A DNA stretch of 62,758 nt from an uncultured Gammaproteobacteria bacterium (lineage in GTDB: Bacteria; Patescibacteriota; Microgenomatia; Levybacterales; UBA12049): the NCBI GenBank assembly GCA_964544105.1, contig CAZIZQ010000001.1, positions 1-62,758 of the forward strand, written 5' to 3'. Made by a program: the position numbers and the translations under genes. This document shows, piece after piece, positions 2,840-60,675 of this stretch (its first letter is position 1; each line of letters starts with the position of its first letter). The notes beneath the pieces were generated by a model that searched no databases, was not told the origin of the DNA, and saw only the letters and a list, made by a program, of their open reading frames with translations.

Positions 2840-2840
2840 T

Positions 2841-3632
2841 ATGCAATATTTTTGGGAACAATTAGAGTTTTTAGAACCAATTATTAGAAAAGCAAACAAA
2901 ATACATCTTTTTTTAGATTTCGACGGTACCCTTTCTCCGATTGTATCTGCTCCGGATAAGGCAAGATTGCCAAAACAGACAAAAAGAATACTTGGGAAAC
3001 TGCTTTTGGTAAATAATATACAGATGTCTGTAGTAAGTGGGCGTACTTTGGCAGATATTAAACAAAGGGTGAATACAAAAGGGATTATCTATGCTGGCAG
3101 CCATGGGATGGAATGGGAATACAAAGGACAGAGACATACAATCAAAGTTCCATCCAAAACATTCCACATATTACAACAGGTAAAACAAGCGCTACAAAAA
3201 ATCAGCCAAGATTTCCCGGGTACGATTGTAGAAGAAAAAATATTTTCGATAGTATTCCACTATAGGCAGGTTACTACAGACACCAAACAAACACTAAAAG
3301 AGATTCTTAAAAAGGCATTAGATAAATATATAAAAAAAGGAGACGTTGCTTTGCTATTGGAAAAGGAATCATACGAGCTTTGGGCAAATGTAGATTGGAC
3401 AAAAGGAGACCTTATAAACAAATTTAAAAGTTTATTTCCTAATACTGACACAATTATTTATATTGGAGACAGCACAACAGATGAAGGGGCCTTTAAAAAA
3501 CTTCGTAATGACATAACAATAAAAGTGGGAACACCACATAATTCAATGGCAAACTATTTTCTTAAAGACGAAAAAGATGTACAAAAATTTTTAAGCCGGC
3601 TTCTTTATATACTTACAAATAATAATGCATAA
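2841..3632 (+). CDS. otsB: Trehalose-6-phosphate phosphatase (HAD family)
   Basis: Has HAD motif I (FLDFDGTL) and a later GDSTTDE motif. It starts 2 nt after the otsA stop. Confidence 0.85.
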   Translation: MQYFWEQLEFLEPIIRKANKIHLFLDFDGTLSPIVSAPDKARLPKQTKRILGKLLLVNNIQMSVVSGRTLADIKQRVNTKGIIYAGSHGMEWEYKGQRHTIKVPSKTFHILQQVKQALQKISQDFPGTIVEEKIFSIVFHYRQVTTDTKQTLKEILKKALDKYIKKGDVALLLEKESYELWANVDWTKGDLINKFKSLFPNTDTIIYIGDSTTDEGAFKKLRNDITIKVGTPHNSMANYFLKDEKDVQKFLSRLLYILTNNNA

Positions 3633-3662
3633 GCAGTTGTAATTGCTGTATAATATATCAAT

Positions 3663-5792
3663 ATGGGACGGCGAAGGCATGCTTTAAGAGGAAGAAGGCG
3701 TAGATTTCCTAAGTTTAAGCTCCGAAAAGAAACAGTATACACTATTTTTGGATTCGGCCTTTTTCTGATTGGGATTTTATCGTTACTGTCGTTTGTCAAA
3801 AGCGAGGGAGTTTTTGCCACACTCCATGAAACACTAGTGTATTATTTTGGTTGGGTAGCCATACTTACCCCATTGTTGTTCTTTTTTTTCTCCCTGTTAC
3901 TTCTTCGTTTCAGAATGTTTTTATCCAGGCCAAATGTGGCAATCGGTTTTTGTCTATTTTTTGTTGCATTAGGTGCGCTTACTAGGACAGGAGTTTTTGG
4001 CATATCTCTTTTTTCAATGGTGGCCGAAGTGCTTACAGATTTAGGTGCAATGTTGGTGTTTCTTATAGGTATTGGTGTTGGGATTGTTGTTTTCTTTGAT
4101 ACAACAATAGATGAACTTGGAAAAGGTGCAATTGCAGTTATGAATGCGTTTCGGCGAATAATTCCCAAAAACGCCATTTCGTTTTTTAAGACCAGTAATC
4201 AGCCTCTTGTTGTTAGGAATAAGCCCATGGAAATTAAAGGAGGAGGAAAAGAAATATCGCAATCAATGCCCAAAGATAATGCTTCACAACCTCTAGTTAA
4301 AAAAGAATCTATGATGCTTGCAGATCAGTTAGTTACCAATACAGTCTTAAAAGATGGTATCTGGGAATATCCATCTTTGTCGATTCTTTCCGATGGTCCA
4401 GGCCAAAAGGCAGATACAGGTGACGTAAAAAAGATTGCCACAGTTATCGAAAAAACTCTGCAGAGTTTTGGTATTGGCGCCCGGGTTGTCGAGGTAAATG
4501 TTGGGCCGGCAGTTACCCAGTATGCCCTAGAAATTGCTCTTGGGACAAAGGTATCAAAAATCACATCGTTATCAAATGATTTAGCCCTTGCCACCGAAGC
4601 GCCAACAGGCCAAATTCGTATCGAAGCGCCTATTCCCGGACGAAACCTTGTTGGTATAGAAATTCCTAATAGGTCACTTCAGGTTGTAACCATAAAAACT
4701 ATGCTTTCGTCCCAGATTATGCAAAAGAGCAAGTCAAAACTGACCGTTGCGCTTGGACTGGACGTGTCGGGTAATCCAGTTGTGGCCAATATTGCCAAAA
4801 TGCCCCACATACTTATTGCTGGCACCACCGGGTCCGGAAAGTCGGTCATGATGAATACGTTTATCACCTCTCTTTTATTCCGCGCATCACCGAATGAGGT
4901 AAAATTTATCTTGGTCGATCCAAAACGGGTCGAGCTGACTGGTTATAATGGCATTCCTCATTTGCTTACTCCGGTTATTGTTGAGGTAGAAAAAATTCTT
5001 TCATCCTTACGGTGGGCAATGGGAGAAATGGATAGGCGGTACAAGCTCTTTGCAGAGCGGGGTGTAAGAAATATCGATGCGTATAACGAAATGTCCGGTT
5101 TTCAGGCTATTCCCTATATTGTTATTCTTGTTGACGAATTGGCAGATTTAATGGCCTATGCGCCTGTTGAAGTAGAAGATTCCATTGCCCGTCTTGCCCA
5201 AATGGCCCGAGCAACCGGTATTCACCTGGTTGTGGCAACACAGCGTCCATCGGTCGATGTTATTACAGGACTTATTAAAGCAAATATTCCAACCCGTATT
5301 GCCTTTAATGTGTCTTCCATGATAGATTCTCGTGTTATTATTGACACACCGGGAGCAGAAAAACTTCTTGGCCGGGGAGACATGTTGTATATCCCGCCGG
5401 ATCAGGCCAAGCCGACTCGTATTCAAGGAACGTTTGTTTCAGACAAAGAAGTAAAGAAATTGGTAGAGTATTTACGGGCAAAATCTCCTGTGGTTGAGTA
5501 TTCGGAAGAGGTTGTTTTGCAGGTATTGCCATTAAAAAAAGGTAGTGCTTCAGGTGGTGGTACAGATGGGAAAGATACATTTTTTGAAGAAGCAGTGCGT
5601 ACTGTTTGTCAGCATGACCGGGCGTCGGCATCGCTCTTACAGCGTCGATTGTCGGTTGGGTATGCAAGAGCAGCTAGGATACTGGATCAACTCGAGGCTG
5701 CCGGTGTTGTTGGTCATGGGGAGGGGTCAAAACCAAGGGATGTATTGGTAAAAAATGCAGAAGAATTTATCGCAAGCCTACACGAGTCATAA
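3663..5792 (+). CDS. ftsK: DNA translocase FtsK/SpoIIIE
   Basis: N-terminal membrane helices, Walker A (GTTGSGKS), the VDELADL and ATQRPS blocks, and a C-terminal gamma wHTH (LLQRRLSVGYARAARILDQLE). Confidence 0.93.
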   Translation: MGRRRHALRGRRRRFPKFKLRKETVYTIFGFGLFLIGILSLLSFVKSEGVFATLHETLVYYFGWVAILTPLLFFFFSLLLLRFRMFLSRPNVAIGFCLFFVALGALTRTGVFGISLFSMVAEVLTDLGAMLVFLIGIGVGIVVFFDTTIDELGKGAIAVMNAFRRIIPKNAISFFKTSNQPLVVRNKPMEIKGGGKEISQSMPKDNASQPLVKKESMMLADQLVTNTVLKDGIWEYPSLSILSDGPGQKADTGDVKKIATVIEKTLQSFGIGARVVEVNVGPAVTQYALEIALGTKVSKITSLSNDLALATEAPTGQIRIEAPIPGRNLVGIEIPNRSLQVVTIKTMLSSQIMQKSKSKLTVALGLDVSGNPVVANIAKMPHILIAGTTGSGKSVMMNTFITSLLFRASPNEVKFILVDPKRVELTGYNGIPHLLTPVIVEVEKILSSLRWAMGEMDRRYKLFAERGVRNIDAYNEMSGFQAIPYIVILVDELADLMAYAPVEVEDSIARLAQMARATGIHLVVATQRPSVDVITGLIKANIPTRIAFNVSSMIDSRVIIDTPGAEKLLGRGDMLYIPPDQAKPTRIQGTFVSDKEVKKLVEYLRAKSPVVEYSEEVVLQVLPLKKGSASGGGTDGKDTFFEEAVRTVCQHDRASASLLQRRLSVGYARAARILDQLEAAGVVGHGEGSKPRDVLVKNAEEFIASLHES

Positions 5793-6430
5793 TGATACGG
5801 GTTGGACAAAAGTTAAAAGAGGAGCGTCTTCGTAAGGGATTGGCGCTGGAAGACGTCGCAAAAGCTACAAAAATAAAAGTGGCTTTTTTGCAAGCAATAG
5901 AAAAAGGTGAATATAAAAAGCTTCATTCAAGTGCTTATGCTCACGGATTTGTAAAAAACTATGGAGAATTCCTAGGTTTATCTTCTAAAGAAACACTGGC
6001 AATATTTCGTCGGGAATTTGATGAAAAGAAAGTCTATAAAGTTTTGCCAGTTGGTTTTTCAGAAAGAGAAATTTCTATTGTAAAAAGATTTCCTATACAG
6101 AGGACCCTGCTTATAGGAGGATTATTTTTTATTTGTCTTTTGGGTTATATACTTTTTCAGTATAGGTATGCTTTTATGAGCCCGACATTGACTGTGCTTG
6201 TGCCAAAAGAAAATCAGGTTTTTTCAGAAAAACTCATTCCTGTATCAGGGACAACAGATCTTAATGCTACAGTATATGTAAATACAATTTCTGTGCTTGT
6301 TGATGAAAACGGAGAATTTAAAAAAACCATTAGTGTTTTTCCCGGTAAAGAAACAATTATTATTCGCGCAATCAGTCGATTTGGAAAGGAAACTGTTGTA
6401 GAGCGGCATATTCAAGTAAACGAGCAATAA
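5792..6430 (+). CDS. RodZ-like HTH membrane protein
   Basis: N-terminal XRE-type HTH followed by a HGFVKNYGEFLGL-type block, one TM helix and a beta-rich C-terminus. Confidence 0.65.
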   Translation: MIRVGQKLKEERLRKGLALEDVAKATKIKVAFLQAIEKGEYKKLHSSAYAHGFVKNYGEFLGLSSKETLAIFRREFDEKKVYKVLPVGFSEREISIVKRFPIQRTLLIGGLFFICLLGYILFQYRYAFMSPTLTVLVPKENQVFSEKLIPVSGTTDLNATVYVNTISVLVDENGEFKKTISVFPGKETIIIRAISRFGKETVVERHIQVNEQ

Positions 6431-6474
6431 TCTTTGATCTTGACACAAGCTTTTGGTTTAGATACCATTGTTTT

Positions 6475-6741
6475 ATGATTGATTCTGCCCAAGGGGTATT
6501 ATTTTTTGTTCTTTTTGTGTTAACTGTTTTAGTGTTGGTACTTGGCGTACAGGTATTTTTTATCCTGCGGGAGCTTCGTCAAACAGTCATAAAAGCAAAC
6601 AAAGTGCTGGACGACGCGGGTGTTATTACCAAAAGCGTATCGGGTCCGGTTTCCAGTCTTTCAAGTTTGGCAACTGGCGTCAAAACCGGCGCATTTATTG
6701 CAGGGCTACTGAAAAGAAAAAAGGAGAAAAGCGATGAGTGA
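6475..6741 (+). CDS. Small membrane protein (DUF948-like)
   Basis: 88-aa ORF with an N-terminal TM helix and a helical tail. It overlaps the next ORF by 8 nt. Confidence 0.5.
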   Translation: MIDSAQGVLFFVLFVLTVLVLVLGVQVFFILRELRQTVIKANKVLDDAGVITKSVSGPVSSLSSLATGVKTGAFIAGLLKRKKEKSDE

Positions 6742-50697: not shown

Positions 50698-51183
50698 ATG
50701 GCAAAAGAAGAAAAAAAGAAAGAAGAAAAAGTAAAGGTAGATAATTCAAAAAAGAATTTTGTTCATGCTGTTGGCCGGCGACGGGAAGCAGTTGCGCGGG
50801 TTCGTTTGTATCACGAGCCCAAAGAGCCTGTTGTGTGGAGCGAACAAAAAATTGAAAAAGGACAAATCTTTGTGAATGGCATGCCAATTTCACAGTATTT
50901 TTCAGGTAGTGTTGCACAAGCAGCATACGAAGAGCCGCTTAGGGCAACCAACATGTTGGAAAAGAGTGTTGTTACCATTATTGCCTCGGGCGGTGGGAAA
51001 AATGGACAGTTGGATGCGGTAATTCATGGTCTTGCACGTGCGTTGTCCAAGCATGATACAGAAAAGCATAGAAAAACTCTAAAGAAAAAAGGATTTTTGA
51101 CTAGAGATCCCCGAACACGAGAGCGACGAAAAGTCGGCATGGGTGGTAAAGCTCGTCGAAAGAGACAATCACCAAAACGTTAA
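50698..51183 (+). CDS. rpsI: 30S ribosomal protein S9
   Basis: GGGKNGQLDAVIHGLARAL ... TRDPRTRERRKVG ... C-terminal KR. Confidence 0.95.
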   Translation: MAKEEKKKEEKVKVDNSKKNFVHAVGRRREAVARVRLYHEPKEPVVWSEQKIEKGQIFVNGMPISQYFSGSVAQAAYEEPLRATNMLEKSVVTIIASGGGKNGQLDAVIHGLARALSKHDTEKHRKTLKKKGFLTRDPRTRERRKVGMGGKARRKRQSPKR

Positions 51184-51187
51184 GGTT

Positions 51188-52024
51188 ATGTCCCAAGACA
51201 AATACTCTGCTGTCTGGGTTTCCAATTCCTCGATTAGTGATTTTTTAAATTGTCCAAGACTCTATTTTCTTCGGAATGTCTATAAGGATCCAAAAACCAA
51301 TCACAAAATAAATATTGTTAGCCCCCCTCTTGCTTTGGGCCAAACCGTGCACGAGGTGTTGGAATCTTTGTCATTTCTGCCAAGCGATAGCCGACTTAAC
51401 GAATCGCTGTTGGATAAATACGATGTTGTTTGGAAAAAAGTCAGCGGTAAGCTTGGTGGGTTTACAGACGAAACAGAAGAAAAGTATGTTAAAGAGCGGG
51501 GCGCAGCCATGCTTAAGCGAGTTATGGAGCACCCTGGCCCACTTTTAAATAAAGCCATAAAAATACATAAAGACGACCCAAACTATTTACCCCATTACTA
51601 TTTATCCGAAGAAGAAAATATTATCCTTTGTGGCAAGATTGATTGGCTGGAATACATGCCGCAAGATGGCAGTGTTCACATTATTGACTTTAAGACCGGT
51701 AAAAACGAAGAAAAAGAAGACTCTCTCCAACTGCCCATCTATTACTTGTTAGTCAACAATTGCCAAAAGATGAAGGTGACCAAAGCCAGCTATTGGTACC
51801 TGGATCGAGATACCAAGCCTGTCGCGGTCGAGCTACCGCCCCTTGAGGAGGCCTACAATATGGTTTTAGAGGCTGCAAGCAAGGTCAAGCAGGCAAGGGT
51901 TAAAAAAGAGTTCCTCTGCCCTAAAAATGGCTGTTTTTCCTGCCGGCCGTTTGAAGCCATTCTCAAGGGCGAGGCAGAGTTTGTTGGGGTGAGCGGCTAC
52001 AGCCAGGATATGTATATTTTGTAG
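51188..52024 (+). CDS. PD-(D/E)XK nuclease, Cas4/RecB-like, with Cys cluster
   Basis: IIDFKTGK and LQLPIYYLL motifs. One N-terminal Cys (FLNCPRLYF) plus C-terminal CPKNGCFSC. Starts 4 nt after rpsI. Confidence 0.7.
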   Translation: MSQDKYSAVWVSNSSISDFLNCPRLYFLRNVYKDPKTNHKINIVSPPLALGQTVHEVLESLSFLPSDSRLNESLLDKYDVVWKKVSGKLGGFTDETEEKYVKERGAAMLKRVMEHPGPLLNKAIKIHKDDPNYLPHYYLSEEENIILCGKIDWLEYMPQDGSVHIIDFKTGKNEEKEDSLQLPIYYLLVNNCQKMKVTKASYWYLDRDTKPVAVELPPLEEAYNMVLEAASKVKQARVKKEFLCPKNGCFSCRPFEAILKGEAEFVGVSGYSQDMYIL

Positions 52025-52030
52025 CCCACA

Positions 52031-52057
52031 AAAACCCCCGCCAAGGCGGGGGCTTTT
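52031..52057. terminator. Bidirectional intrinsic terminator between the nuclease gene and csp
   Basis: aaaa-cccccgc-caag-gcggggg-ctttt: a GC stem flanked by an A run and a T run. Confidence 0.7.
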
Positions 52058-52075
52058 GTGTATAGCCTAATATTA

Positions 52076-52273
52076 TTAGGCAAGTTTGACGTTTTTTGCA
52101 TTTGGGCCTTTTGGTCCATCTACAACTTCAAACGTTACGGCTGCTCCAACTTGAAGTTCATCAAATGTAACACCGACTAAATCTTTGGAATGAAAGAATA
52201 GATCTTTTACTTCTCCTTCTCGAGAAATAAATCCAAATCCTCGATCTGTTTTTGTTTTAACTGTTCCGTTCAT
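52076..52273 (-). CDS. Cold-shock protein (CspA family)
   Basis: 65 aa, contains DRGFGFI. AAGGAGG SD and TGgTATAAT lie upstream on the minus strand. Confidence 0.95.
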   Translation of the reverse strand: MNGTVKTKTDRGFGFISREGEVKDLFFHSKDLVGVTFDELQVGAAVTFEVVDGPKGPNAKNVKLA

Positions 52274-52438
52274 GTATTTTTCTACCTCCTTTCACTCTTT
52301 AGATTATACCACGGTAACTATTGAATTGCGACAAAAAGTAAAAAAGATGCCTGTTTTTGTTTATATTATCTTTACCAGATATTGCCAAATCTTGCCAGAT
52401 AGTATGTTGATGCCCATTTAGAAAAACAAAATTCCCTA

Positions 52439-52474
52439 TTGAAAATCGTCTAATAATCGTCTATAATACGTCTA
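52439..52474 (+). promoter_or_regulatory. Consensus-like fic promoter overlapped by three CGTCTA boxes phased at 11 bp
   Basis: TTGAAA (52439-52444), 17 nt, TATAAT (52462-52467). CGTCTA occurs at 52447, 52458 and 52469. Confidence 0.55.
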
Positions 52475-52483
52475 TATACTCTT

Positions 52484-53527
52484 ATGATTAAACCTCGATA
52501 TATAATTACTGATCGTCTTTTAGCCAATATTAAAAGAGTTAATTCCTTGGTCAGTGAATTGAATGACAAAAGATTTCCTAATATAGTCCTACTTGAGCTA
52601 GAAAGAACTGCAAGAGAAGTTTCCTCTTATGCTTCAACCAGTATTGAGGGTAATCCTCTTCCTTTAACTGAAGTCAAAAGGATCCTTAAAAATAAACCTG
52701 CTCATATTAGAGATAGTGAAAAAGAGGTCTTAAACTATAATCAAGCGCTCCAAGATCTAAATGAAAAGATTAAGGAAGGTAAAGCTAAACTTTCTCTAGA
52801 ACTTATATTAATAATTCAAAGACAGGTAACTAAAAATTTATTACCTAATTTCGAATCAGGTTATTTAAGAGAAAAGGCAGTAGTTGTTAATGATCCTAGA
52901 ACTGGTCAAGCAGTATTTCTACCTCCTGATGCTAAGGATGTAAAACCATTGCTTGAAAATTTAGTGGATTTTGTGGAGAGTAATCAAGAAAAAATTGATC
53001 CTCTAATTCTTGCTGGGATATTTCATAAACAAATGGTAATTATTCACCCTTTTATGGATGGTAATGGTAGGGCTACTAGATTGGCTACAAAACTATTGCT
53101 TGCTGAGATGGGATTAAATACCTTTAATCTATTTAGTTTTGAGAATTATTATAACCAAAATGTTACCAAGTACTTTCAAACTGTAGGTGAATTTGGAAAT
53201 TATTATGAGTTAATAGACAAAATAGATTTCACTAGTTGGTTGGAATATTTTACCGAAGGGATTATTGATGAATTACTAAGGGTACAGAAATTACTTCCTA
53301 AAACAGCAGTAGGATTTACCCCAGAAAGTATTTTAAAACCACATTATTTAAAAATTCTTGAATTTATTAGAGAGAAAGGCTTTATTGCAGATCAAGATTA
53401 TGCAAAGATAACTAATAGGGCAAATTCAACAAGGGCATTTGATTTTCAAAAATTAGTAAAAATAGGCCTTATTGAAATGAGGGGAAAAGGAAAAGCTACA
53501 TATTATGTATTAAAAGAAATAGATTAA
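52484..53527 (+). CDS. fic: Fic-family protein with N-terminal inhibitory helix and C-terminal wHTH
   Basis: Canonical HPFMDGNGRATR motif, a STSIEGN match to (S/T)xxxE(G/N), and a C-terminal wHTH-like ~70 aa. Confidence 0.85.
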   Translation: MIKPRYIITDRLLANIKRVNSLVSELNDKRFPNIVLLELERTAREVSSYASTSIEGNPLPLTEVKRILKNKPAHIRDSEKEVLNYNQALQDLNEKIKEGKAKLSLELILIIQRQVTKNLLPNFESGYLREKAVVVNDPRTGQAVFLPPDAKDVKPLLENLVDFVESNQEKIDPLILAGIFHKQMVIIHPFMDGNGRATRLATKLLLAEMGLNTFNLFSFENYYNQNVTKYFQTVGEFGNYYELIDKIDFTSWLEYFTEGIIDELLRVQKLLPKTAVGFTPESILKPHYLKILEFIREKGFIADQDYAKITNRANSTRAFDFQKLVKIGLIEMRGKGKATYYVLKEID

Positions 53528-53535
53528 CTTAAATT

Positions 53536-53748
53536 ATGAATAAAATACAACCAAAATTAAAACTTATCAAACAAGGCTCAATAAAGGGTTATACAATAAG
53601 TAATATAGAAAAGGTTCTTAGTAAAGAAAAATACAATAGTTTTAAACAATGGATTTATGGACAAACAGTAGGAATATATAAGGGAGAGGATCTTATTTAT
53701 GCTCATGATTTTGATAGCTTCTTAAAAGGTCTTCCAGTTGTGGATTAA
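53536..53748 (+). CDS. Small hypothetical protein (70 aa)
   Basis: ORF 9 nt downstream of fic. No recognisable motif. Confidence 0.4.
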   Translation: MNKIQPKLKLIKQGSIKGYTISNIEKVLSKEKYNSFKQWIYGQTVGIYKGEDLIYAHDFDSFLKGLPVVD

Positions 53749-53872
53749 AATTAACTTTATCGTTTAAGAACGATTTAGACGAAGTATTTTTTCTCTTTAT
53801 TTATAATTCTGAAGCACATATGAGATTGAATAGTCCGTAAGATTCTTTAGGATAAGCTATAATGACATAATT

Positions 53873-54844
53873 ATGGAACTGCAAATTCCGACAAAGAAAA
53901 TGCTATTTGTTGCATACCCTTGGGATATGTATATCCAAAGCATGTATGAGGATATATTTAGCGAATTATTTGAAGAATGGGATATTAGGCATGGATCAGA
54001 GGTAACTTTAAAAGATAGCGATGCTTCAGAAGTCGAAAAATTCATGAACAGGAATAAACATCTTTACGATATTTTTGTCTCAGCAATTGGGAAATCAGAT
54101 TTTTTTATTGCAGATGTCACTAAAACAAATCCGAATGTAATGCTTGAGCTTGGAGTTGCAATACAACTAAACAAAAACGTATTGATTGTTACTAGTGATG
54201 AGCTTAAAAAACTACCGTTTGATATCAGTGGATTTAGAGTTAGTAGATATAAGAATAAAAATGAATTGAAGAAGATAATCAAAGACGAACTAAAAACCTT
54301 TGAAAAAATAAGATCTCAAACTTTCCTCAAATATTTTGATGGATTTTATTTTCCCTATCCGTCCGAAGGAGAGTTAAAACACGGAAACGCATTGCCACTA
54401 CCAATACCGAGAAATATTAAGAATCTTCACCTACGAATAGAATATAAATTCTTGTCGATTTCGAATTCTCATGATTGGTTAGGTATCCATTTAAGAACTC
54501 AAGCTCCTGATATTGTAAGATCTGAATTAGTTTACGTCAGGAGTAATAAAAAGCTCGAATCAGTCTCTTTTCCTGGTAGACGCACACCTATTGTTGGAAA
54601 AGAAGCAACAACACAAAATTCTCAAATAGAGGGTGATTTTAAGGTGCTAGAATTAATAATGGTAGAGAATTCATTGAAAGCGGTAACTCCAGATAGCAGT
54701 CTTGAAGATAATGAACTTCAGAATGAAAACTTAGGCGGAATTGTTTTACATGCTTGGGCACATAACCCTCCAACGCAACAGAACCTAGCTATAAGATATA
54801 GAAACATAGAAATAATAAGCTTAGATACAACTGCTCCTATTTAG
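53873..54844 (+). CDS. Nucleoside 2-deoxyribosyltransferase-like / TIR-like Rossmannoid domain fused to an unknown beta-rich C-terminal domain
   Basis: The N-terminal ~140 aa contain FFIADVTKTNPNVMLELGVAIQLNKNVLIV, typical of NDT-like/TIR-like folds. The C-terminal ~180 aa are unassigned. An alternative start is at 53900. Confidence 0.45.
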   Translation: MELQIPTKKMLFVAYPWDMYIQSMYEDIFSELFEEWDIRHGSEVTLKDSDASEVEKFMNRNKHLYDIFVSAIGKSDFFIADVTKTNPNVMLELGVAIQLNKNVLIVTSDELKKLPFDISGFRVSRYKNKNELKKIIKDELKTFEKIRSQTFLKYFDGFYFPYPSEGELKHGNALPLPIPRNIKNLHLRIEYKFLSISNSHDWLGIHLRTQAPDIVRSELVYVRSNKKLESVSFPGRRTPIVGKEATTQNSQIEGDFKVLELIMVENSLKAVTPDSSLEDNELQNENLGGIVLHAWAHNPPTQQNLAIRYRNIEIISLDTTAPI

Positions 54845-54850
54845 ATAAAT

Positions 54851-55855
54851 TTAGTTTCCTTTTATATCTTGATACTTTCTTAGGATATACAAACAAAATT
54901 CGATAGTCATATTTTTACTCAGCCTTGCATCTTCAGGAAGAGATTTTAATTTATGAGAACCTTGATTAGATAGAAAATGTCTTAATGAAATAAGAATTTT
55001 ACCCTGATCGTCAGAGATTATATTTGTTTCTTTAAAAAACTTAGCTATCTTCTCTGAATCCTTCTCATCCATTTTGCTGCCTGATTCTGGATTTATTGAC
55101 TTAGCTATTATCTGATAAAACCTTTCAGTGAAACTCCTTAATAAGTCCATACAGCCCTTATAATCAAAATTATCTGATGCTGTATTAAATTTTTGATCAA
55201 TCTTATCTAAAGTCTCTGTTAAATCATCTGGAAAATTATATTTTTTAAATTGAGATTTTAAAACCTCTTTATCCTCGTTTATTTCCTGATTAGTATTTTC
55301 AAGTTGTGTAGATAAATTTTTAAGCTGAGCACTATTTATTCTATCGTGTAGCTGAAATTCATTTTCATCTCCCAGGGCATTTTTTATTTTTTCTAATTCT
55401 TCTTCAGATAAATAGGCATGTTCGTACTTTATAATATTTTTGAGAATTCCGAGTAAGTTACTAAATGAATTTTCAGGTGCTTCTTTTAAATTATTTTTTG
55501 CTTGTGTTATTGCTTCTTCTGTTTTACCAGCTCTATGAAGAATAAAAAATGTAAGGTAAGAAACCTCGTAATAGGGGGATTCTTTTGATAGATACGAGAT
55601 TAATATATTTTGGAATTCATTTCTATCTTGTCCACTCAAACTTGAATATATCTTAAGTAATATTTTTGCATTTTCAGAATGCAATATATCTAAACTTGGA
55701 ACATCAGTTATTAATTTTGGAATTTCTCCTACAGTTGTCCATTCTGTTTCCAATCCTGTATTAAAACTTCCTAAACCACCACCTCTTCGACCATTAGCCT
55801 TATAGGCTCTTTTTTCCTCATTTAAGACCAAGTTGATTTTATCAGCAATACTCAT
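54851..55855 (-). CDS. Helical hypothetical protein with an Abi_C/HEPN-like C-terminus (tentative)
   Basis: ATG 55855 (or TTG 55870). The C-terminal region contains ...LISLRHFLSNQGSHK...; the R..H spacing is longer than canonical Rx4-6H. It lies downstream of an XRE gene on the same strand. Confidence 0.35.
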   Translation of the reverse strand: MSIADKINLVLNEEKRAYKANGRRGGGLGSFNTGLETEWTTVGEIPKLITDVPSLDILHSENAKILLKIYSSLSGQDRNEFQNILISYLSKESPYYEVSYLTFFILHRAGKTEEAITQAKNNLKEAPENSFSNLLGILKNIIKYEHAYLSEEELEKIKNALGDENEFQLHDRINSAQLKNLSTQLENTNQEINEDKEVLKSQFKKYNFPDDLTETLDKIDQKFNTASDNFDYKGCMDLLRSFTERFYQIIAKSINPESGSKMDEKDSEKIAKFFKETNIISDDQGKILISLRHFLSNQGSHKLKSLPEDARLSKNMTIEFCLYILRKYQDIKGN

Positions 55856-55930
55856 AATAGTTTGAAGCAATTCTTTTTAACTTTGAAGTTAGTAGAATAA
55901 GTTGATTAAAATACTTATTATTCAAAGAGT

Positions 55931-56146
55931 TCAGAAAAGATCCTTTATTTGAACTTTTAAGGCTTTTGCTATTTTTTCCAAAAGCTCCAATGAAGGAGAA
56001 CGACGTCCTTGCTCGACATGACTTATATAAACTCTACTTGAGTCTATTTTTTTCGCTAGGTCTTCTTGAGTAATACCTAATTTCTTTCTTAGTTCTGCAA
56101 TTTGCTTACCTAATTTATCGATAGTTTTTTGTTCGATTTTTACCAT
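55931..56146 (-). CDS. XRE-family HTH transcriptional regulator
   Basis: 71 aa with LRKKLGITQEDLAKKIDSSRVYISHVEQGRRSPS. TGcTATAAT lies 6 nt upstream of the ATG. Confidence 0.85.
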   Translation of the reverse strand: MVKIEQKTIDKLGKQIAELRKKLGITQEDLAKKIDSSRVYISHVEQGRRSPSLELLEKIAKALKVQIKDLF

Positions 56147-56212
56147 ATCGAGATTATAGCATAGATTTTGAAAAAGATGTCTACATGATAACAAATAGGC
56201 ACAAAATACTTA

Positions 56213-56241
56213 TTGACATGATGTTAGCTGTGTGATAACAT
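56213..56241 (+). promoter_or_regulatory. Promoter for the integrase gene with repeated TGATAACA boxes
   Basis: TTGACA (56213-56218), 17 nt, TAACAT (56236-56241). tgataaca also occurs at 56186-56193 and 56233-56240. Confidence 0.45.
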
Positions 56242-56253
56242 TTAGCTAGGATT

Positions 56254-57183
56254 ATGAAATATATTTACTCTTTACCTTTAGCTGATGATTTCTTCTTATA
56301 TCTTTCTACTAATAATTATTCTTCTAAAACTGTTTCTGACTATAAGGGTGATCTAGCGATATTTGATGGCTTTCTAGCAGATACTAATCTCGAAATGAAA
56401 ACACTAACTAAAAGAAATATTTTTGAATTTAAAGCTTATCTTTATTCAGAAGAAAGAAAAACTGCGACAACAAAAAAAGTTGCTCATAAAAAATTATCCG
56501 CTGTTACCATTAACAGACTTTTATCTGTTATTAGAGTGTATTTAAGATTTTTAACAGATCAAGATTATTTAGTCTTAATTAATGCAGATATGTTCAAAAT
56601 GGTAAAGAAGGAAAGGCATCATGCAAATGTTGCAGATTTTAAGGATTTAGTTTCCTTAATAGAATTACCAACCAAAGTTGAAAAAGATCCTTGGGTTGCC
56701 AGTAGGAATAGAGCAGTTTTGGAAATGTTATTTGCAACAGGGATGAGAATTTCCGAACTTATTAATTTAAACAAAAGAGATCTAAATGATGAAGGAAAAC
56801 TTTTTATAACTGGCAAAGGGAGAAAAGAGCGTTTTGTTTATTTAACGGATCGAGCAAAATCTTTTATAGAACAATACTTAAAATGTAGGACTGATGAGGA
56901 AGCACCATTGTTTATTTCCAAGAAACGTTCTGACAGAATAACTCCTCGATATGTTCAAGAAAGAATTCACAAATATTGCGAGATTCTCAAAATAGGTATT
57001 CGTACAACCCCACATTCTTTTCGCCACGGCTTTGCAACCTACCTTGCAGAAAATGGCGCATCGCCTGCCGCTATTCAAGTACTGCTAGGACATGAGTCTC
57101 TTAATACCACAACAAGGTACATCAATGTTTCGGACCGTTTTGCCCAAGAAACTCATAAAAAATTCCATCCTTTGGCGATCTAG
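56254..57183 (+). CDS. Tyrosine recombinase / integrase (XerC/D-like)
   Basis: HSFRHGFATYLAENG and LLGHESLNTTTRY catalytic blocks, plus an N-terminal SAM-like domain. Confidence 0.9.
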   Translation: MKYIYSLPLADDFFLYLSTNNYSSKTVSDYKGDLAIFDGFLADTNLEMKTLTKRNIFEFKAYLYSEERKTATTKKVAHKKLSAVTINRLLSVIRVYLRFLTDQDYLVLINADMFKMVKKERHHANVADFKDLVSLIELPTKVEKDPWVASRNRAVLEMLFATGMRISELINLNKRDLNDEGKLFITGKGRKERFVYLTDRAKSFIEQYLKCRTDEEAPLFISKKRSDRITPRYVQERIHKYCEILKIGIRTTPHSFRHGFATYLAENGASPAAIQVLLGHESLNTTTRYINVSDRFAQETHKKFHPLAI

Positions 57184-57431
57184 CGAGTATCAGATCGCTG
57201 ATACCCATTTTGGGTACTTTTGAAGCTAATCTTCCCGAAATTTTTTCCCTTCCTCTTATATATGTAAAAGAGAAAAAAATATATCCATAAACCATATATT
57301 TAAAGACCAACCCCCAATAATAAATGCTGAGATACTTAGTCTAATAACACAGAAACAGTAATCTTAAATCATTATCTGCAAGCAGTTACTAATACCGAAA
57401 CTTAAGGAAGAATCTTTGCTATAATAGCCAT

Positions 57432-58451
57432 ATGAAACCTAAAAAATCTACTAACTTAGATAACTCAGCTTTAGATAGAAAAAATATACTTAATAATCCT
57501 TTTGCCGTAGAACATGTTCAGAAAGAGGTAGGTATAAAAGGATTTAAGTTTGAAAACGAATATAGATATACGCTTGATCAAGTTTCTAGATTTTTTGAGG
57601 TGGATTTAAGGACAATACGAAGGTATGTAGCTAAATATGGTGAAGAATTAACTCAAAATGGCTACGAGATACTTACTGGAGATAGATTATCTAGCTTCAA
57701 GAATCAATTTGGTAGTGACATTGATGTCACTACCAAAACTACAGTGCTGGGAATATTTACTTTTAAAGCCTTTTTAAACATAGGTATGCTTTTAAGGGAA
57801 AGTGAGAAAGCACGTATCCTCAGAGGTTTAATCTTAAATATCGTTATAGACGTTGTTAGTAAAAAAGCAGGTGGAAGCACTAAATATATAAACCAAAGAG
57901 ATGGAGATTACTTAGTTAGCTTATATATTGGAGAAAATTATAGAAAAGAGTTTCTTGAGGCATTAAAAAGATATGTAAGCATGGGCGGTAATATTAAATA
58001 TCTAATTTACACTAATAAAATTTATACTTCTATTTTTAAAGAGAAGGCCCACGAATATAAAAATATTCTCGATTTAACAAAGGAAGATAATGTGAGGGAT
58101 ACGATGTATGCAGAAGTATTAACTATAATAGCCTCATATGAAACTGGTCTTGCGCATGAAATAAGAAAGAAGTCTGAAAAATTAAAAAGAAAATTGAATG
58201 AGCAAGAAACTAACGAATTATTTGAAGAATTTGAAAATAATCCTATTTGGAAACCACAAATTGATACTGTCAGAATAAAAATGTCTAGCAGAGATAACGC
58301 TTTAAGAGGTATTATTCATCCAGAATTAAGTAACTATATTCAACCCTTAAATACTGCAGATTTTGAACGGTTCTTGGGAGAAAAAAGCAAGGAATTAGAA
58401 AAAAGAATAAAAGAAAATAAAGAGGTATTTAAAAGACTAAAAGATAAATAA
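57432..58451 (+). CDS. RhuM-like DNA-binding protein (tentative)
   Basis: N-terminal HTH-like segment (YTLDQVSRFFEVDLRTIRRYVAKY) and a helical C-terminus. It ends 4 nt before the Doc reading frame. The assignment is by architecture only. Confidence 0.35.
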   Translation: MKPKKSTNLDNSALDRKNILNNPFAVEHVQKEVGIKGFKFENEYRYTLDQVSRFFEVDLRTIRRYVAKYGEELTQNGYEILTGDRLSSFKNQFGSDIDVTTKTTVLGIFTFKAFLNIGMLLRESEKARILRGLILNIVIDVVSKKAGGSTKYINQRDGDYLVSLYIGENYRKEFLEALKRYVSMGGNIKYLIYTNKIYTSIFKEKAHEYKNILDLTKEDNVRDTMYAEVLTIIASYETGLAHEIRKKSEKLKRKLNEQETNELFEEFENNPIWKPQIDTVRIKMSSRDNALRGIIHPELSNYIQPLNTADFERFLGEKSKELEKRIKENKEVFKRLKDK

Positions 58452-58455
58452 TCCT

Positions 58456-58886
58456 ATGTCCACTATTCTTTATTTTGATCTAAAACATGCGATTGAAGCT
58501 CATGATAAAGTTATAGAGATTTCAGGTGGCGCGTTGGGAATTCGTGATGTTGGCCTTTTAGAGAGTGTTTTGAACATGTTAAAAATGATGATTATTATCC
58601 AACCTTAAGTGATAAATTAACTCATATAGTTTTTTCTGTTGCGATGAATCATGCTTTTCTAGATGGTAACAAGCGTTCGTCAATTGCCTTGGCCGGATTT
58701 TTTCTAGATATTAATGGTTACGGAAGAAGAGTAGGCACATTCATAGTAGAGATGGAAAATATTGTACTTTGGGTAGCAGAAAGAAAAATTAATAAAGATT
58801 TTTTATTAGAAATAATCACTTCTTTATTAGAACAAGGAGAATTTACAGAAGAAATAAAATTAAAACTCTTTGAAATTCTCGAATAA
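58456..58886 (+). pseudogene. doc: Doc (death-on-curing) Fic-fold toxin, disrupted by a frameshift near 58568-58575
   Basis: Frame 1 gives MSTILYFDLKHAIEAHDKVIEISGGALGIRDVGLLESVL and stops at 58606-58608. Another frame continues HVKNDDYYPTLSDKLTHIVFSVAMNHAFLDGNKR. Confidence 0.75.
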
Positions 58887-58948
58887 CTACCTAGTTACTT
58901 CGTCTAATAACACCTTGTTGTAATAAATTTTATTTTAGGTAAGTACAG

Positions 58949-59422
58949 TCAATTCAGAAGTACTATACTAAGATTTAATAGTACTGCAAAACTGACCCAT
59001 GCTATATATGGGTATAAAAGCAAGGCTGCTGTTTTTGAAATTTTCTTAAACAACATAATTGTGTAGACAATAGAGATCCAAAGAAAAATTATAACAACAA
59101 AAGCAGACAAAGGATTTTGTAGTCCAAAAAATACGAAAGACCAGGAAAAATTTAAAGCCAATTGTATAAAAAATATCTGTAAGGCATGCTTGGCTTTGTT
59201 GCTTTTTAATTCCTTTTTCCAAACCAAGAAAAGAGACATCCCCATTAGAGCATATAGGATTGTCCATACAGGACCAAAGATCCAATTGGGAGGATTAAAG
59301 TTTGGCTTATTTAAAAGTGGGTACCATGTTGTTACCGAAGAAAATGTAAAGACAGAACCAGCAATTCCGACTGCTTCACACATAGCGATCGAGATAATAA
59401 GTTTAAAAATATTTTTAGGCAT
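58949..59422 (-). CDS. tspO: TspO/MBR tryptophan-rich sensory protein
   Basis: 157 aa with 5 TM helices. Contains WYPLLNKPNFNPPNWIFGPVWTILYALMG. Confidence 0.88.
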   Translation of the reverse strand: MPKNIFKLIISIAMCEAVGIAGSVFTFSSVTTWYPLLNKPNFNPPNWIFGPVWTILYALMGMSLFLVWKKELKSNKAKHALQIFFIQLALNFSWSFVFFGLQNPLSAFVVIIFLWISIVYTIMLFKKISKTAALLLYPYIAWVSFAVLLNLSIVLLN

Positions 59423-59453
59423 TGATATTATTATGACACATTTCTTTCAAAGT

Positions 59454-59526
59454 CGGGGAGACTGGTTCCGCCCCAGCGACCTCTCGCACCCCATGCGAGT
59501 GCTCTAACTGTCTGAGCTACTCCCCG
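59454..59526 (-). tRNA. tRNA-Pro (anticodon GGG) with non-canonical D and T loops
   Basis: 73-nt cloverleaf folded by hand: C1-G72 acceptor stem CGGGGAG/CTCCCCG, anticodon loop AUGGGGU, T loop GGCGGAA instead of TTCRANY, D loop AGACAGTTA without GG. No CCA is encoded. Confidence 0.75.
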
Positions 59527-59538
59527 GAAACTGATCTC

Positions 59539-59567
59539 TTGTATTTTAACACAAAAGCTTTTACAAT
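59539..59567 (+). promoter_or_regulatory. Sigma70-like promoter for recA
   Basis: TTGTAT (59539-59544), 17 nt, TACAAT (59562-59567), 10 nt before the ATG. Confidence 0.45.
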
Positions 59568-59577
59568 CGGCACTAAG

Positions 59578-60675
59578 ATGGGCAGGACTCCAAACGCGCA
59601 AAAACAATCTTCAAACGGTCACTCCGAGTTGTCCGGCAAGCTTTCTGCTGTCAAACTTGCCATGGAGCAAATCGAAAAGCAGTATGGCCGGGGATCTATT
59701 ATGCGCTTTGGCGACTCGGGGCAAAAATTTGATATTTCGGTTATTTCTACCGGTTGCTTACCTCTCGATATCGCCCTTGGTGTTGGTGGTGTACCAAGGG
59801 GGCGGATTATCGAAATTTATGGCCCCGAGGCATCGGGTAAAACAACTATTTGTCTCTCCATTATTGCCCAAGCTCAAAAGCATGGCGGTGTTGCTGCATT
59901 TATCGATGCCGAACATGCGCTTGATCCAATCTGGGCGCAGCGTTTGGGGGTAAAATTAGATGAATTGCTTATTTCCCAGCCAGACACCGGCGAGCAGGCA
60001 CTGGAAATTGCCGAAAGCCTTATTAGAAGTGGTGGAGTAGATGTGCTAGTTATCGATTCGGTGGCAGCCCTTGTGCCACGAGCCGAAATAGAGGGAGAAA
60101 TGGGAGATTCTATGATGGGTTTGCAAGCTCGTCTTATGTCCCAGGCGCTTCGAAAACTAACCGGTGTTATTTCCAAATCCAAAACTGTTTGTATTTTTAC
60201 CAATCAATTGCGGCAAAAAATTGGTGTTATGTTTGGTAATCCCGAAACAACAACCGGCGGTTTGGCGCTTAAATTCTATTCGTCGGTCCGCATGGATGTT
60301 CGAAAGATAGAAACTATTAAGGATGGTGATAAAGTTGTGGGATCTCGGCACAGGGTAAAGATTGTCAAAAATAAAGTATCCTCTCCATTTCGCATTGCCG
60401 AATTTGACGTTGACAGCCGGGGCATTTCCCGGGAAGGCGGTATTTTAGATGTGGGGCTGGAGATGGGAATTTTCCAAAAGTCCGGCGCATTCTACCGTTA
60501 TAACGACCAGATGATTGGACAGGGAAAAGCAGCGGTACAGGAATATTTAAAGGAAAACCAGGATGTTGCCAAAAAAATAGTTGCCGAGATTATGAGTAAG
60601 AATAAAGAAGCTGGTACTCCCGTTGCAGTAGGTATGGAAGAAAAAGAAGTACCTTTAAATGGAGAAATTCAATAG
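59578..60675 (+). CDS. recA: Recombinase RecA
   Basis: GPEASGKTT Walker A and a canonical RecA core. The start was chosen at ATG 59578 (MGRTPNAQ). Confidence 0.97.

Follow-up and report, generated by a model that had tools for sequence, protein, structure and literature searches.

The window analysed here is a stretch of 62,758 nt, contig CAZIZQ010000001.1 of a metagenome-assembled genome (MAG) of candidate phyla radiation (CPR) type that totals 863,808 bp in 44 contigs at a GC of 0.388. Between rpsI and a tRNA-Pro gene it holds a low-GC block dense in genes of toxin or defence type. The block is horizontally acquired, foreign-looking accessory DNA. From sequence comparison it appears to be not one element with one function but an array of at least six cassettes that circulate separately in related metagenomic genomes. 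We favour, at a probability of roughly 0.6, the reading that it is a horizontally acquired mosaic in the slot between rpsI and tRNA-Pro, with its cassettes joined at a short core sequence. In what follows, G labels denote the genomes compared (G000 is the genome analysed), L labels the loci or contigs fetched, and C labels the contigs of G000. The features of the array, with coordinates in the window, are:

52418-52429, minus strand: degenerate core (7/12) at the left breakpoint of the Fic cassette; a perfect core stands at the homologous place in L070
52439-52474, plus strand: Fic promoter, TTGAAA, 17 nt and TATAAT, with three CGTCTA boxes at 11-bp phase; kept in L070
52484-53527, plus strand: class-II Fic AMPylase of SoFic architecture with a C-terminal domain like a winged helix-turn-helix, predicted from Pfam, PADLOC and motifs
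53536-53748, plus strand: ORF70, an open reading frame (ORF) for a basic 70-aa protein (isoelectric point 9.4), the last gene ahead of the type-b junction element
53759-53791, minus strand: type-b junction element, hairpin ATCGTT-n4-AACGAT plus core TACTTCGTCTAA at 53775-53786, after ORF70; 91% identical to an intergenic element of L139
53873-54844, plus strand: 323-aa protein, NDT/DNPH1-like Rossmannoid domain plus C-terminal concanavalin/galectin/CBM66-like beta-sandwich, predicted from profiles and an AlphaFold model
54851-55870, minus strand: all-helical 339-aa protein (334 aa from the ATG at 55855), described from its C-terminal motif and a model
55931-56194, minus strand: helix-turn-helix (HTH) regulator of the XRE family, divergent from the recombinase gene with which it pairs; L115 and L139 keep the pair
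56254-57183, plus strand: extra Xer-like tyrosine recombinase with R165, K190, H254, R257, H280 and Y288 intact
57319-57350, plus strand: 32-nt direct repeat, copy 1, with core TACTTAGTCTAA at 57333-57344, ahead of the PDC-M59 pair; from a repeat search
57432-58451, plus strand: PDC-M59A, 339-aa putative DNA-binding partner of Doc; full-length PADLOC match at 3e-96
58456-58886, plus strand: PDC-M59B, a toxin gene of the Doc family, in two pieces owing to a one-base frame shift near 58570-58575, with HAFLDGNKR in the second piece
58882-58913, plus strand: 32-nt direct repeat, copy 2, with core TACTTCGTCTAA at 58896-58907, just past the Doc stop; from the same search

The cassettes that we distinguish are csp (a cold-shock protein gene at the left edge), Fic-ORF70, the NDT-like gene with its lectin-fold domain, the gene for the helical protein with a HEPN-like end, the XRE/Xer pair and M59A-Doc; a TspO gene lies outside the array. 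An earlier, sequence-only reading of this DNA had placed every ORF of the block where we find it. Two of its labels fared less well: what it called RhuM-like (PDC-M59A) has no Pfam RhuM match, and HEPN for the helical protein is a weak assignment.

Composition and extent

GC over 52300-59453 is 0.309, the lowest of 1152 overlapping 7-kb windows (mean 0.388, standard deviation 0.022), and in 500-nt windows it runs at 0.28-0.34 over 52.25-59.25 kb as against 0.41-0.48 in the flanks. The tetranucleotide L1 distance of the block from the genome average gives z=4.8, with only one region, on contig C6, more distant; after GC normalization the deviation gives z=5.2 and ranks 1 of 587 windows. By these measures the low-GC island proposed from the letters alone, at ~52.3-59.45 kb, is confirmed as a compositional outlier. 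The GC of 20-28% counted by hand at that stage holds for single lines but not for the block, which averages 31%. At third codon positions GC (GC3) is 0.17-0.30 in the island genes versus 0.32-0.49 in rpsI, rny, recA and the PD-(D/E)XK nuclease gene next to rpsI. The csp gene, with a GC3 of 0.17, groups compositionally with the block, which therefore starts near 52060, at the hairpin at 52035-52052.

Some other parts of G000 are also outliers in GC-normalized tetranucleotide usage or low in GC (C8:9000-23000, C3:32000-41500 and C7:1500-14000), and may be additional islands.

Independent assortment of the cassettes

Relatives of the cassettes are found singly and in differing company. Fic-ORF70 with its CGTCTA-box promoter (52429-53750) recurs as 88.9% identical DNA in L070, where the flanks are unrelated. 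The XRE/Xer pair (55930-57183) is conserved in L115 (70% and 72%) and L139 (94% and 59%), the gene beyond XRE differing each time; over L114, L115 and L139 the identity of the XRE-Xer cassette is 71-85%. M59A-Doc is intact in G292 (66%), beside a tRNA-Ser gene; it lies beside type III restriction-modification (R-M) genes in Ilyobacter pILYOP01 (55%) and beside an integrase in Streptococcus satellite phages (46%). M59A is present in 2 of 401 class genomes. The NDT-like gene (span 53852-54844) is 77-81% identical in L061-L066, six contexts of which just one is mobile- or defence-like, and occurs in 5 of 194 family genomes. Homologs of the helical-protein gene lie near TerB_N, HEPN, DpnII-MboI and recombinase genes in two contigs, and in ordinary contexts in two genomes.

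In six contexts of the NDT-like gene and four of the helical-protein gene, neither is accompanied by the other or by any further island gene, except that an XRE homolog lies ~2 kb from a homolog of the helical-protein gene in L069. Having no conserved neighbours in common, the two are not one module, and the proposal that the cargo could form an undescribed defence module is not supported.

The junction core

Comparison of all intergenic pieces of the island yielded a 12-nt core, TACTT[CA]G[TC]CTAA. It occurs three times in the 864-kb genome, always between genes and at island junctions (Markov-3 expectation 0.275; reversed control 0). Two of the three copies sit in the 32-nt direct repeats, which match at 26 of 32 positions and flank M59A-Doc exactly; Markov shuffles reached this level in 2 of 60 trials. 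No third copy of the 32-nt repeat was found, the best other match being 22/32. In 1.49 Mb of fetched loci the core occurs seven times (control 0), all intergenic and all in L070, L071 and L139, contigs that carry island cassettes.

Homology breaks at the core. That between the window and L070 starts exactly at a core, and that between the window and L071 ends exactly at one. In L070 a 10/12 core follows ORF70, and a core predicted after ORF70 was borne out in two new contigs, L212 and L213, where it lies 27 nt past the stop with a second perfect core ahead of the cassette. The cassette of L212 is HigBA-like/ORF70, bracketed by direct cores. Relative to the neighbouring genes the core has no constant orientation, and its copy at 58896 has a convergent gene on either side.

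The core is also continuous with recombinase sequence. In L213 it runs on into INVSDRFAQETHKKFHPLAI*, identical to the last 20 residues of the window Xer protein, and the DNA is 80% identical to the 3' end of the Xer gene over 66 nt, with an alignment score of 67 that shuffles did not reach. A tblastn comparison of L213 sets NE*TK* against NTTTRY. This alignment places the core on the T-(K/R)-Y codons of the Xer family, among them that of the catalytic Tyr288. In the window, ACAACAAGGT lies on the opposite strand 4 nt from the core at 58896 and is identical to the T-T-R-Y codons of the window Xer gene (p ~0.02).

The mechanism that we propose is as follows. Site-specific recombination would link the cassettes at a core of 12-13 nt, TACTTCGTCTAAT, and each insertion would leave a core copy at its junction, which would explain the direct cores bracketing Fic-ORF70 and M59A-Doc. 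The Xer family of the island would recombine at the core, and cassettes with or without a recombinase of their own would be stacked in the rpsI/tRNA-Pro slot. Judged from these sequences, the cores are most likely scars of serial site-specific recombination.

The recombinase and its regulator

Among profile models the recombinase scores best with XerC, XerD and XerA, reaching 204 bits for XerC and 181 bits for XerD, both under the cut-offs, and 59.7 bits for the integron-integrase model TIGR02249, whose cut-off is 265. No ortholog was found in 40 relatives; the best matches, at 33-38% identity, are housekeeping Xer proteins (the one of G000 is on contig C24). The island protein thus appears to be an extra copy and not the housekeeping XerC/D-dif recombinase.

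We tried XRE and the helical protein as a toxin-antitoxin pair and rejected it: XRE is kept with the recombinase, and 3' of XRE there is a different gene, of 123 aa, in L139 and none in L115. XRE is better read as a regulator of the recombinase than as an antitoxin. The L139 locus (1341-6586) is itself an island, with HsdM of a type I R-M system, a Bro-N-like gene, a MerR-type HTH gene with a STAS-like partner, two junction cores and a Replic_Relax-like gene; its Xer gene is 94% identical and has lost residues ~60-171 by an internal deletion. L070 also has a Replic_Relax gene.

The slot between rpsI and tRNA-Pro

The features that frame the array are:

50698-51183, plus strand: rpsI, conserved left flank; its stop is 5 nt from tRNA-Pro in the congener G001
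51188-52024, plus strand: PD-(D/E)XK (Cas4/RecB-like) nuclease gene, GC 0.435, normal
52035-52052, plus strand: hairpin terminator, rich in G+C, that separates the nuclease gene from csp and bounds the low-GC block on the left, seen in the sequence
52076-52273, minus strand: csp, cold-shock protein gene (CSD, 2e-19)
58949-59422, minus strand: TspO/MBR membrane protein gene (4e-52), outside the core-delimited array
59453-59526, minus strand: tRNA-Pro(GGG) with an atypical elbow, 3' end towards the island; found by an Rfam E-value scan
59539-60675, plus strand: recA, conserved right flank, divergent from tRNA-Pro

The site is empty in G001, the only same-genus genome (a single 763-kb contig), where the rpsI stop, 5 nt, tRNA-Pro(GGG) and recA follow in succession. 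All of 51184-59452 is therefore extra relative to G001, an insert of 8.3 kb, and the empty-site variant that would be expected of an island does exist. The island genes are all absent from G001 and rare in the family. Besides the block proper, the insert takes in the nuclease gene, of normal GC, and csp, both patchy in the family. The nuclease gene starts 4 nt past the rpsI stop and is present in 11 of 41 relatives (54-70% identity) but not in G001; it entered the slot earlier or by a separate acquisition. For csp the figure is 7 of 25 relatives, again without G001, and its 5' leader (52278-52309) is 91% identical to the csp leader of G015. A 46%-identical TspO gene also adjoins tRNA-Pro in G012, in the opposite orientation. 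Neither csp nor TspO is a defence gene.

All 18 family loci examined have the divergent tRNA-Pro/recA pair (the tRNA was detected by ARAGORN in 16, by BLAST in L048, and not in L044), and the gap from rpsI to tRNA-Pro ranges from 0.85 to 13.5 kb. The slot is often filled with housekeeping genes, such as uppS, nadD/nadE-like genes and mutS/mutL. The slot of G023 (L035 9548-14776) contains genes for a Bro-N-like protein, an XRE protein and a large serine recombinase of 502 aa, the last of them abutting the 3' end of tRNA-Pro; in G457 (L097 1742-2629) a Bro-N-like gene adjoins the tRNA. Mobile DNA has repeatedly made use of this variable region.

The tRNA-Pro gene scores 45.5 bits in the Rfam E-value scan of 59300-59700 and was missed by ARAGORN, which found no tRNA in the window, and by the Rfam gathering scan. 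Its elbow is odd, with T-loop GGCGGAA and no GG in the D-loop. The allele is strongly unlike that of G001; its match is an atypical form that about 11 of the 194 family genomes carry, in nine or more genera and without exception at the recA locus. Across the atypical alleles (window; L048, L092-L099) the T-loop is invariant in 10 copies, and changes in the acceptor, anticodon and T stems are compensatory; by this pattern the tRNA appears functional, with an elbow that is non-canonical. Congeners may carry the canonical allele (G000 vs G001; G466 vs G003). A link between the atypical allele and the island was considered and rejected, as ten other genomes have the allele at the same locus and none has the island genes. 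ARAGORN reports 26 tRNA genes in G000, not counting this one, and other tRNAs with odd elbows may be hidden; it also reports unusual anticodons, tRNA-Ser(ACT) on C2 and tRNA-Ile(TAT) on C30.

That the 3' end of tRNA-Pro faces the island, as the sequence-only reading saw, is correct. The classical tRNA integration geometry that it drew from this is not borne out, there being no tRNA-derived repeat and the recombinase lying mid-block. Repeat search and blastn-short turned up only chance 9-11-mers: neither the window tRNA, near 52.3 kb or elsewhere in 51-59.7 kb, nor any of 17 family tRNA-Pro alleles is repeated there, and the window's own tRNA has no copy elsewhere in the genome. Between the recombinase gene, which is paired with XRE, and the tRNA lie 2.3 kb that hold M59A, Doc and TspO.

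Cargo genes

Fic and ORF70. The Fic protein matches Pfam Fic at 9e-16 and the PADLOC SoFic model at 1.6e-44 over its full length (residues 10-345), and its motifs are intact (STSIEG at 51-56, HPFMDGNGRATR at 188-199). The NCBIfam SoFic equivalog NF046030 scores 67.6 bits and its cut-off of 550 is not reached. In a preprint by Millman et al. (10.1101/2022.05.11.491447), SoFic is reportedly an anti-phage defence gene. The window protein is class II, with the N-terminal inhibitory helix motif, an intact HPFxDGNGRxxR, a C-terminal domain and a small ORF downstream, and it is likely an abortive-infection toxin that would act by AMPylation. SoFic has been shown experimentally to be such a toxin, and AS1, a small antitoxin of 47 aa encoded downstream of it, has been shown in E. 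coli (PMC12249575). The likeness has limits: the window Fic is far under the equivalog cut-off, and ORF70 has 70 aa versus the 47 of AS1 and also follows genes other than Fic. Fic paralogs of G000 lie on C32, C22 and C25.

ORF70, which has no family match, starts 9 nt downstream of Fic in both the window and L070. The gene upstream of it varies, being Fic in the window and L070, HigA-like in L212 and L213, and another gene in L214 and L071. In that last gene (L214 2-343, L071 2-91) the final segment is 38% identical to M59A over residues 187-245 of the latter, so that ORF70 is found also downstream of M59A- or RhuM-related genes. Being basic, always beside a type-b junction and behind three differing genes, ORF70 is perhaps part of the junction machinery, and may be, for example, a directionality factor. 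The alternative, by analogy with AS1, is that it would be a SoFic antitoxin.

M59A and Doc. PDC-M59 is a computational candidate system of which we found no mention in the literature searched. PDC-M59A has no match to Pfam RhuM (PF13310) at E<=10, only DUF6899 (E=1), and none in NCBIfam or PHROG. The two Doc pieces are of 50 and 80 aa; the second reaches the PDC-M59B model, and the first matches the PHROG Doc-like toxin family. A and B are adjacent in canonical order, the pair is kept in other phyla and in satellite phages, and Doc has the HxFx(D/N)(A/G)NKR motif, as expected of Phd-Doc-like systems; unlike in these, the window Doc is frameshifted and the partner is a 339-aa DNA-binding protein, not a Phd of ~75 aa. 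By homology the pair is likely a Doc-type toxin-antitoxin or candidate defence pair, probably inactive in the window, where Doc as assembled is frameshifted. In L075 (Javan742), at 2998-5716, the integrase of the satellite has as direct neighbours an M59A-like gene, which bears the annotation 'CiaB protein', and a Doc-like ORF of 150 aa; phage satellites thus carry the candidate defence pair among their accessory genes.

NDT-like protein. NDT, DNPH1 and MilB belong to an N-glycosidase superfamily; NDT-like effectors occur in defence systems, as in that of retron Ec86, and the TIR-like DUF4062 NADases are related. The window protein matches Pfam PF05014 at 3.8e-5 with 24.2 bits, below the cut-off of 28.8, so that its membership of the NDT/DNPH1 group holds at superfamily level only; it matches the PADLOC TIR effector model at 1.4e-8. 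In an alignment of 39 homologs D81 and E92 (in NVMLELG) are invariant. Searched against the PDB, the profile found only NDT, DNPH1 and MilB structures, over the segment with the catalytic Glu (E ~0.012), and its VMlELGiAiqLNK aligns to VMVELGMAIALNK of NDT. The AlphaFold (AF2) model has a predicted local distance difference test (pLDDT) score of 86, and the C-terminal sandwich was recognized by Foldseek (E ~5e-7). The family resemblance thus lies in the strand-helix segment with the catalytic Glu (VMLELGxAxxLNK) and in the invariant Asp and Glu, while the sub-cut-off Pfam score, the PDB E of ~0.01, the concanavalin-like fusion and the lack of a conserved partner gene set the protein apart. It is likely a predicted nucleotide N-glycosidase, whose role in defence or in salvage is uncertain. 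A 29-nt inverted repeat around the gene (arms at 53928 and 54863) was discarded, both arms being in coding sequence and the match at chance level.

Helical 339-aa protein. Its ~60 homologs include none that reaches a Pfam cut-off, and 6 of 35 members of the group have weak DUF4145 matches (best 0.029). The C-terminal motif LRHFLSNxGSHRLKS..EDARLS is conserved. The model is all-helical with pLDDT 88.6. Foldseek gave no significant whole-chain match (best E 0.06) and nothing for the N-terminal domain; the last ~120 residues match the HEPN proteins 1wty, 1wwp and 8xdj_B with a local probability of 0.9-0.98 but at E>=0.7. A PDB profile search with alignment A2 gave no match. DUF4145 is a HEPN family (PMC3710099). 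The C-terminal end is probably a HEPN domain of DUF4145 type, to go by the model, and the protein is possibly an Abi-like HEPN RNase. In common with these proteins (PMC3710099) it has a C-terminal four-helix region, a conserved Arg/Asn/His motif and the Abi layout of an N-terminal domain plus a C-terminal effector. It differs in having no significant sequence or structure match, and its motif is spaced R-x8-H, with an Arg that is not invariant, versus Rx4-6H in canonical HEPN domains.

If the cargo works as these assignments suggest, it would act in abortive-infection or toxin-antitoxin defence, through AMPylation by Fic, phosphorylation by Doc (now inactive), a HEPN RNase and a nucleotide N-glycosidase.

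Weighing the explanations

Several observations weigh against joining at the core. The window has only three perfect cores, one inverted relative to the other two; the junctions around the NDT-like gene, the helical-protein gene and XRE have none, and the intact window Xer gene has only a diverged core (~6/12). The core lacks dyad symmetry, which the sites of tyrosine recombinases usually have. Its link to the Xer 3' end comes from one sequence seen in two samples, L212 and L213, and other loci with Xer homologs, at <=70% identity, have no core. It is not enriched more widely: a 13-mer form gave 10 single matches in the 194 family genomes versus ~30 in the control, the TAACAC-extended 17-mer ACTTNGNCTAATAACAC gave three in 400 class genomes versus two, and scans of viral contigs with two extended forms gave one chance match in an unrelated phage for one form and none for the other. 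The core is accordingly specific to this cassette pool. With CGTCTA common to it and to the Fic promoter boxes (box 1 and the core have TCGTCTAAT in common), it could be an operator. On the wider claim of a defence mosaic, NDT-like homologs sit mostly among housekeeping genes, which means that not all the cargo is defence. G001 is a distant congener, with ribosomal proteins 55-66% identical to those of the window, so that it shows the slot able to be empty without dating the insertion.

If the core is a shared operator or a terminator-associated element that travels with one donor pool, the slot may simply be a flexible hotspot, exchanged among CPR genomes by homologous recombination through the rpsI and recA flanks and by illegitimate gene flux. 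The very different and often housekeeping content of the slot in other genera fits this, as does the tRNA-Pro allele, unlike that of the congener and scattered over at least nine genera, which suggests replacement of whole segments. The missing dyad symmetry, the CGTCTAAT of Fic promoter box 1 within the core and the type-b hairpin, placed like a terminator right after ORF70, would suit an operator or terminator too. An operator would, however, hardly be expected to be continuous with, and homologous to, the catalytic-Tyr region of an Xer gene, as in L213; nor do homology breakpoints exactly at core edges, an inconstant orientation relative to genes or a copy between convergent genes speak for one, and we regard this explanation as unlikely. 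We think it more improbable still that a classical integrative element, the remnant of a prophage, satellite or integrative mobilizable element, entered the tRNA-Pro 3' end by its own integrase and decayed until its att repeats became unrecognizable. Such an element would account for the tRNA facing the block, for an integrase together with a CI-like XRE regulator, and for PDC-M59 next to an integrase, as in the Streptococcus satellite phage Javan742. The M59 pair of G292 beside a tRNA-Ser 3' end, the G023 serine recombinase abutting the same tRNA-Pro 3' end and the Bro-N-like genes in the slots of G023 and G457 are in keeping with it. But no direct repeat of tRNA-Pro, own or family allele, lies in 51-59.7 kb, TspO and the M59 genes separate the integrase from the tRNA, replication, packaging and transfer genes are lacking in the block, the nearest relatives of the cassettes differ and stand in differing contexts, and the repeated junction sequence comes from the Xer gene, not the tRNA. 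Of the earlier view of an integrative element with conflict or defence cargo, the foreign accessory DNA, the empty site, the extra recombinase and the largely toxin- or defence-type cargo stand, and integration into the tRNA does not. That the block is an artefact, a mis-assembled low-GC fragment, or a native, vertically inherited AT-rich region is hard to credit: the genome is indeed a MAG of 44 contigs, with other AT-rich stretches such as rplQ/rplM (GC 0.33-0.35), but the block is internal to a contig of 62.7 kb and has on both sides sequence in synteny with relatives, it ranks first as a compositional outlier even with GC normalized, and its genes are absent from the congener and rare in the family (5/194, 2/401, 7/25 and 11/41 genomes).

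The preferred reading, a mosaic joined at the core, can be extended into a more specific one that we put forward with more doubt than belief. The island would then belong to a cassette-capture system of CPR bacteria, in which an XRE-controlled Xer recombinase has its crossover core in the 3' end of its own gene, at the catalytic-Tyr codon, and acts in trans to insert, excise and exchange core-bracketed toxin-antitoxin or defence cassettes of 1-1.6 kb (Fic, HigBA-like, M59A-Doc); ORF70 would be a directionality or accessory factor, and the system would be integron-like without attC.

Relation to known systems

Taken whole, the locus belongs to a familiar type, the defence/toxin-antitoxin genomic island; what is unfamiliar is the host. 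Patescibacteria have already been reported to carry genomic islands and defence genes gained by horizontal transfer (PMC12455944). Two modules appear by homology to be of known kinds or near-members of them, one SoFic and the other PADLOC PDC-M59 or Doc. Tycheposon-like islands, tRNA-adjacent hotspots of successive integrations, are similar in having a low-GC accessory block beside a tRNA with an array of small toxin-antitoxin or defence cassettes, but the window core is not tRNA-derived and stands at only 3-4 junctions.

The unusual part is the junction core with its Xer scars, which has the defining features of none of integrons, pdif modules or SSV-type split integrases. With integrons it has in common a tyrosine recombinase beside an array of 1-2-gene cassettes, a recurring site between them, and cassettes found singly elsewhere. 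Unlike in integrons, the recombinase is far under the IntI cut-off, there are no attC-type imperfect palindromes, the cassettes have their own promoters and lie in both orientations, and the core is in the 3' end of a recombinase-family gene, not upstream. Integrases of the SSV1 type have attP within int itself, and SSV-type elements are viruses of archaea with tRNA genes as their targets; the crossover site within recombinase coding sequence, with a 3' gene fragment split off, resembles L213. The pdif modules of Acinetobacter plasmids, bounded by 28-bp XerC/XerD dyads in alternating orientation on which the host XerCD acts, are likewise small, often toxin-antitoxin, and bounded by Xer-type sites. 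The island is neither a tRNA-targeting archaeal virus nor built on alternating 28-bp dyads.

Classical defence systems are considered scarce in CPR bacteria (Patescibacteria), whose genomes are tiny; at this locus one such genome keeps a compact, partly decayed arsenal of abortive-infection-type modules. Two uncharacterized protein families with plausible enzymatic cores, the NDT-like with its lectin-fold fusion and the helical with a new N-terminal domain, are delimited here, with ~60 homologs each and named homologs from CPR lineages; both can be expressed and assayed. The 12-nt core tied to the recombinase's own gene offers a concrete, testable route for cassette shuffling. If the junction-core reading is true, it would describe a new kind of gene-cassette system and would aid annotation of similar islands in metagenomes, where integrase- and att-based finders fail.

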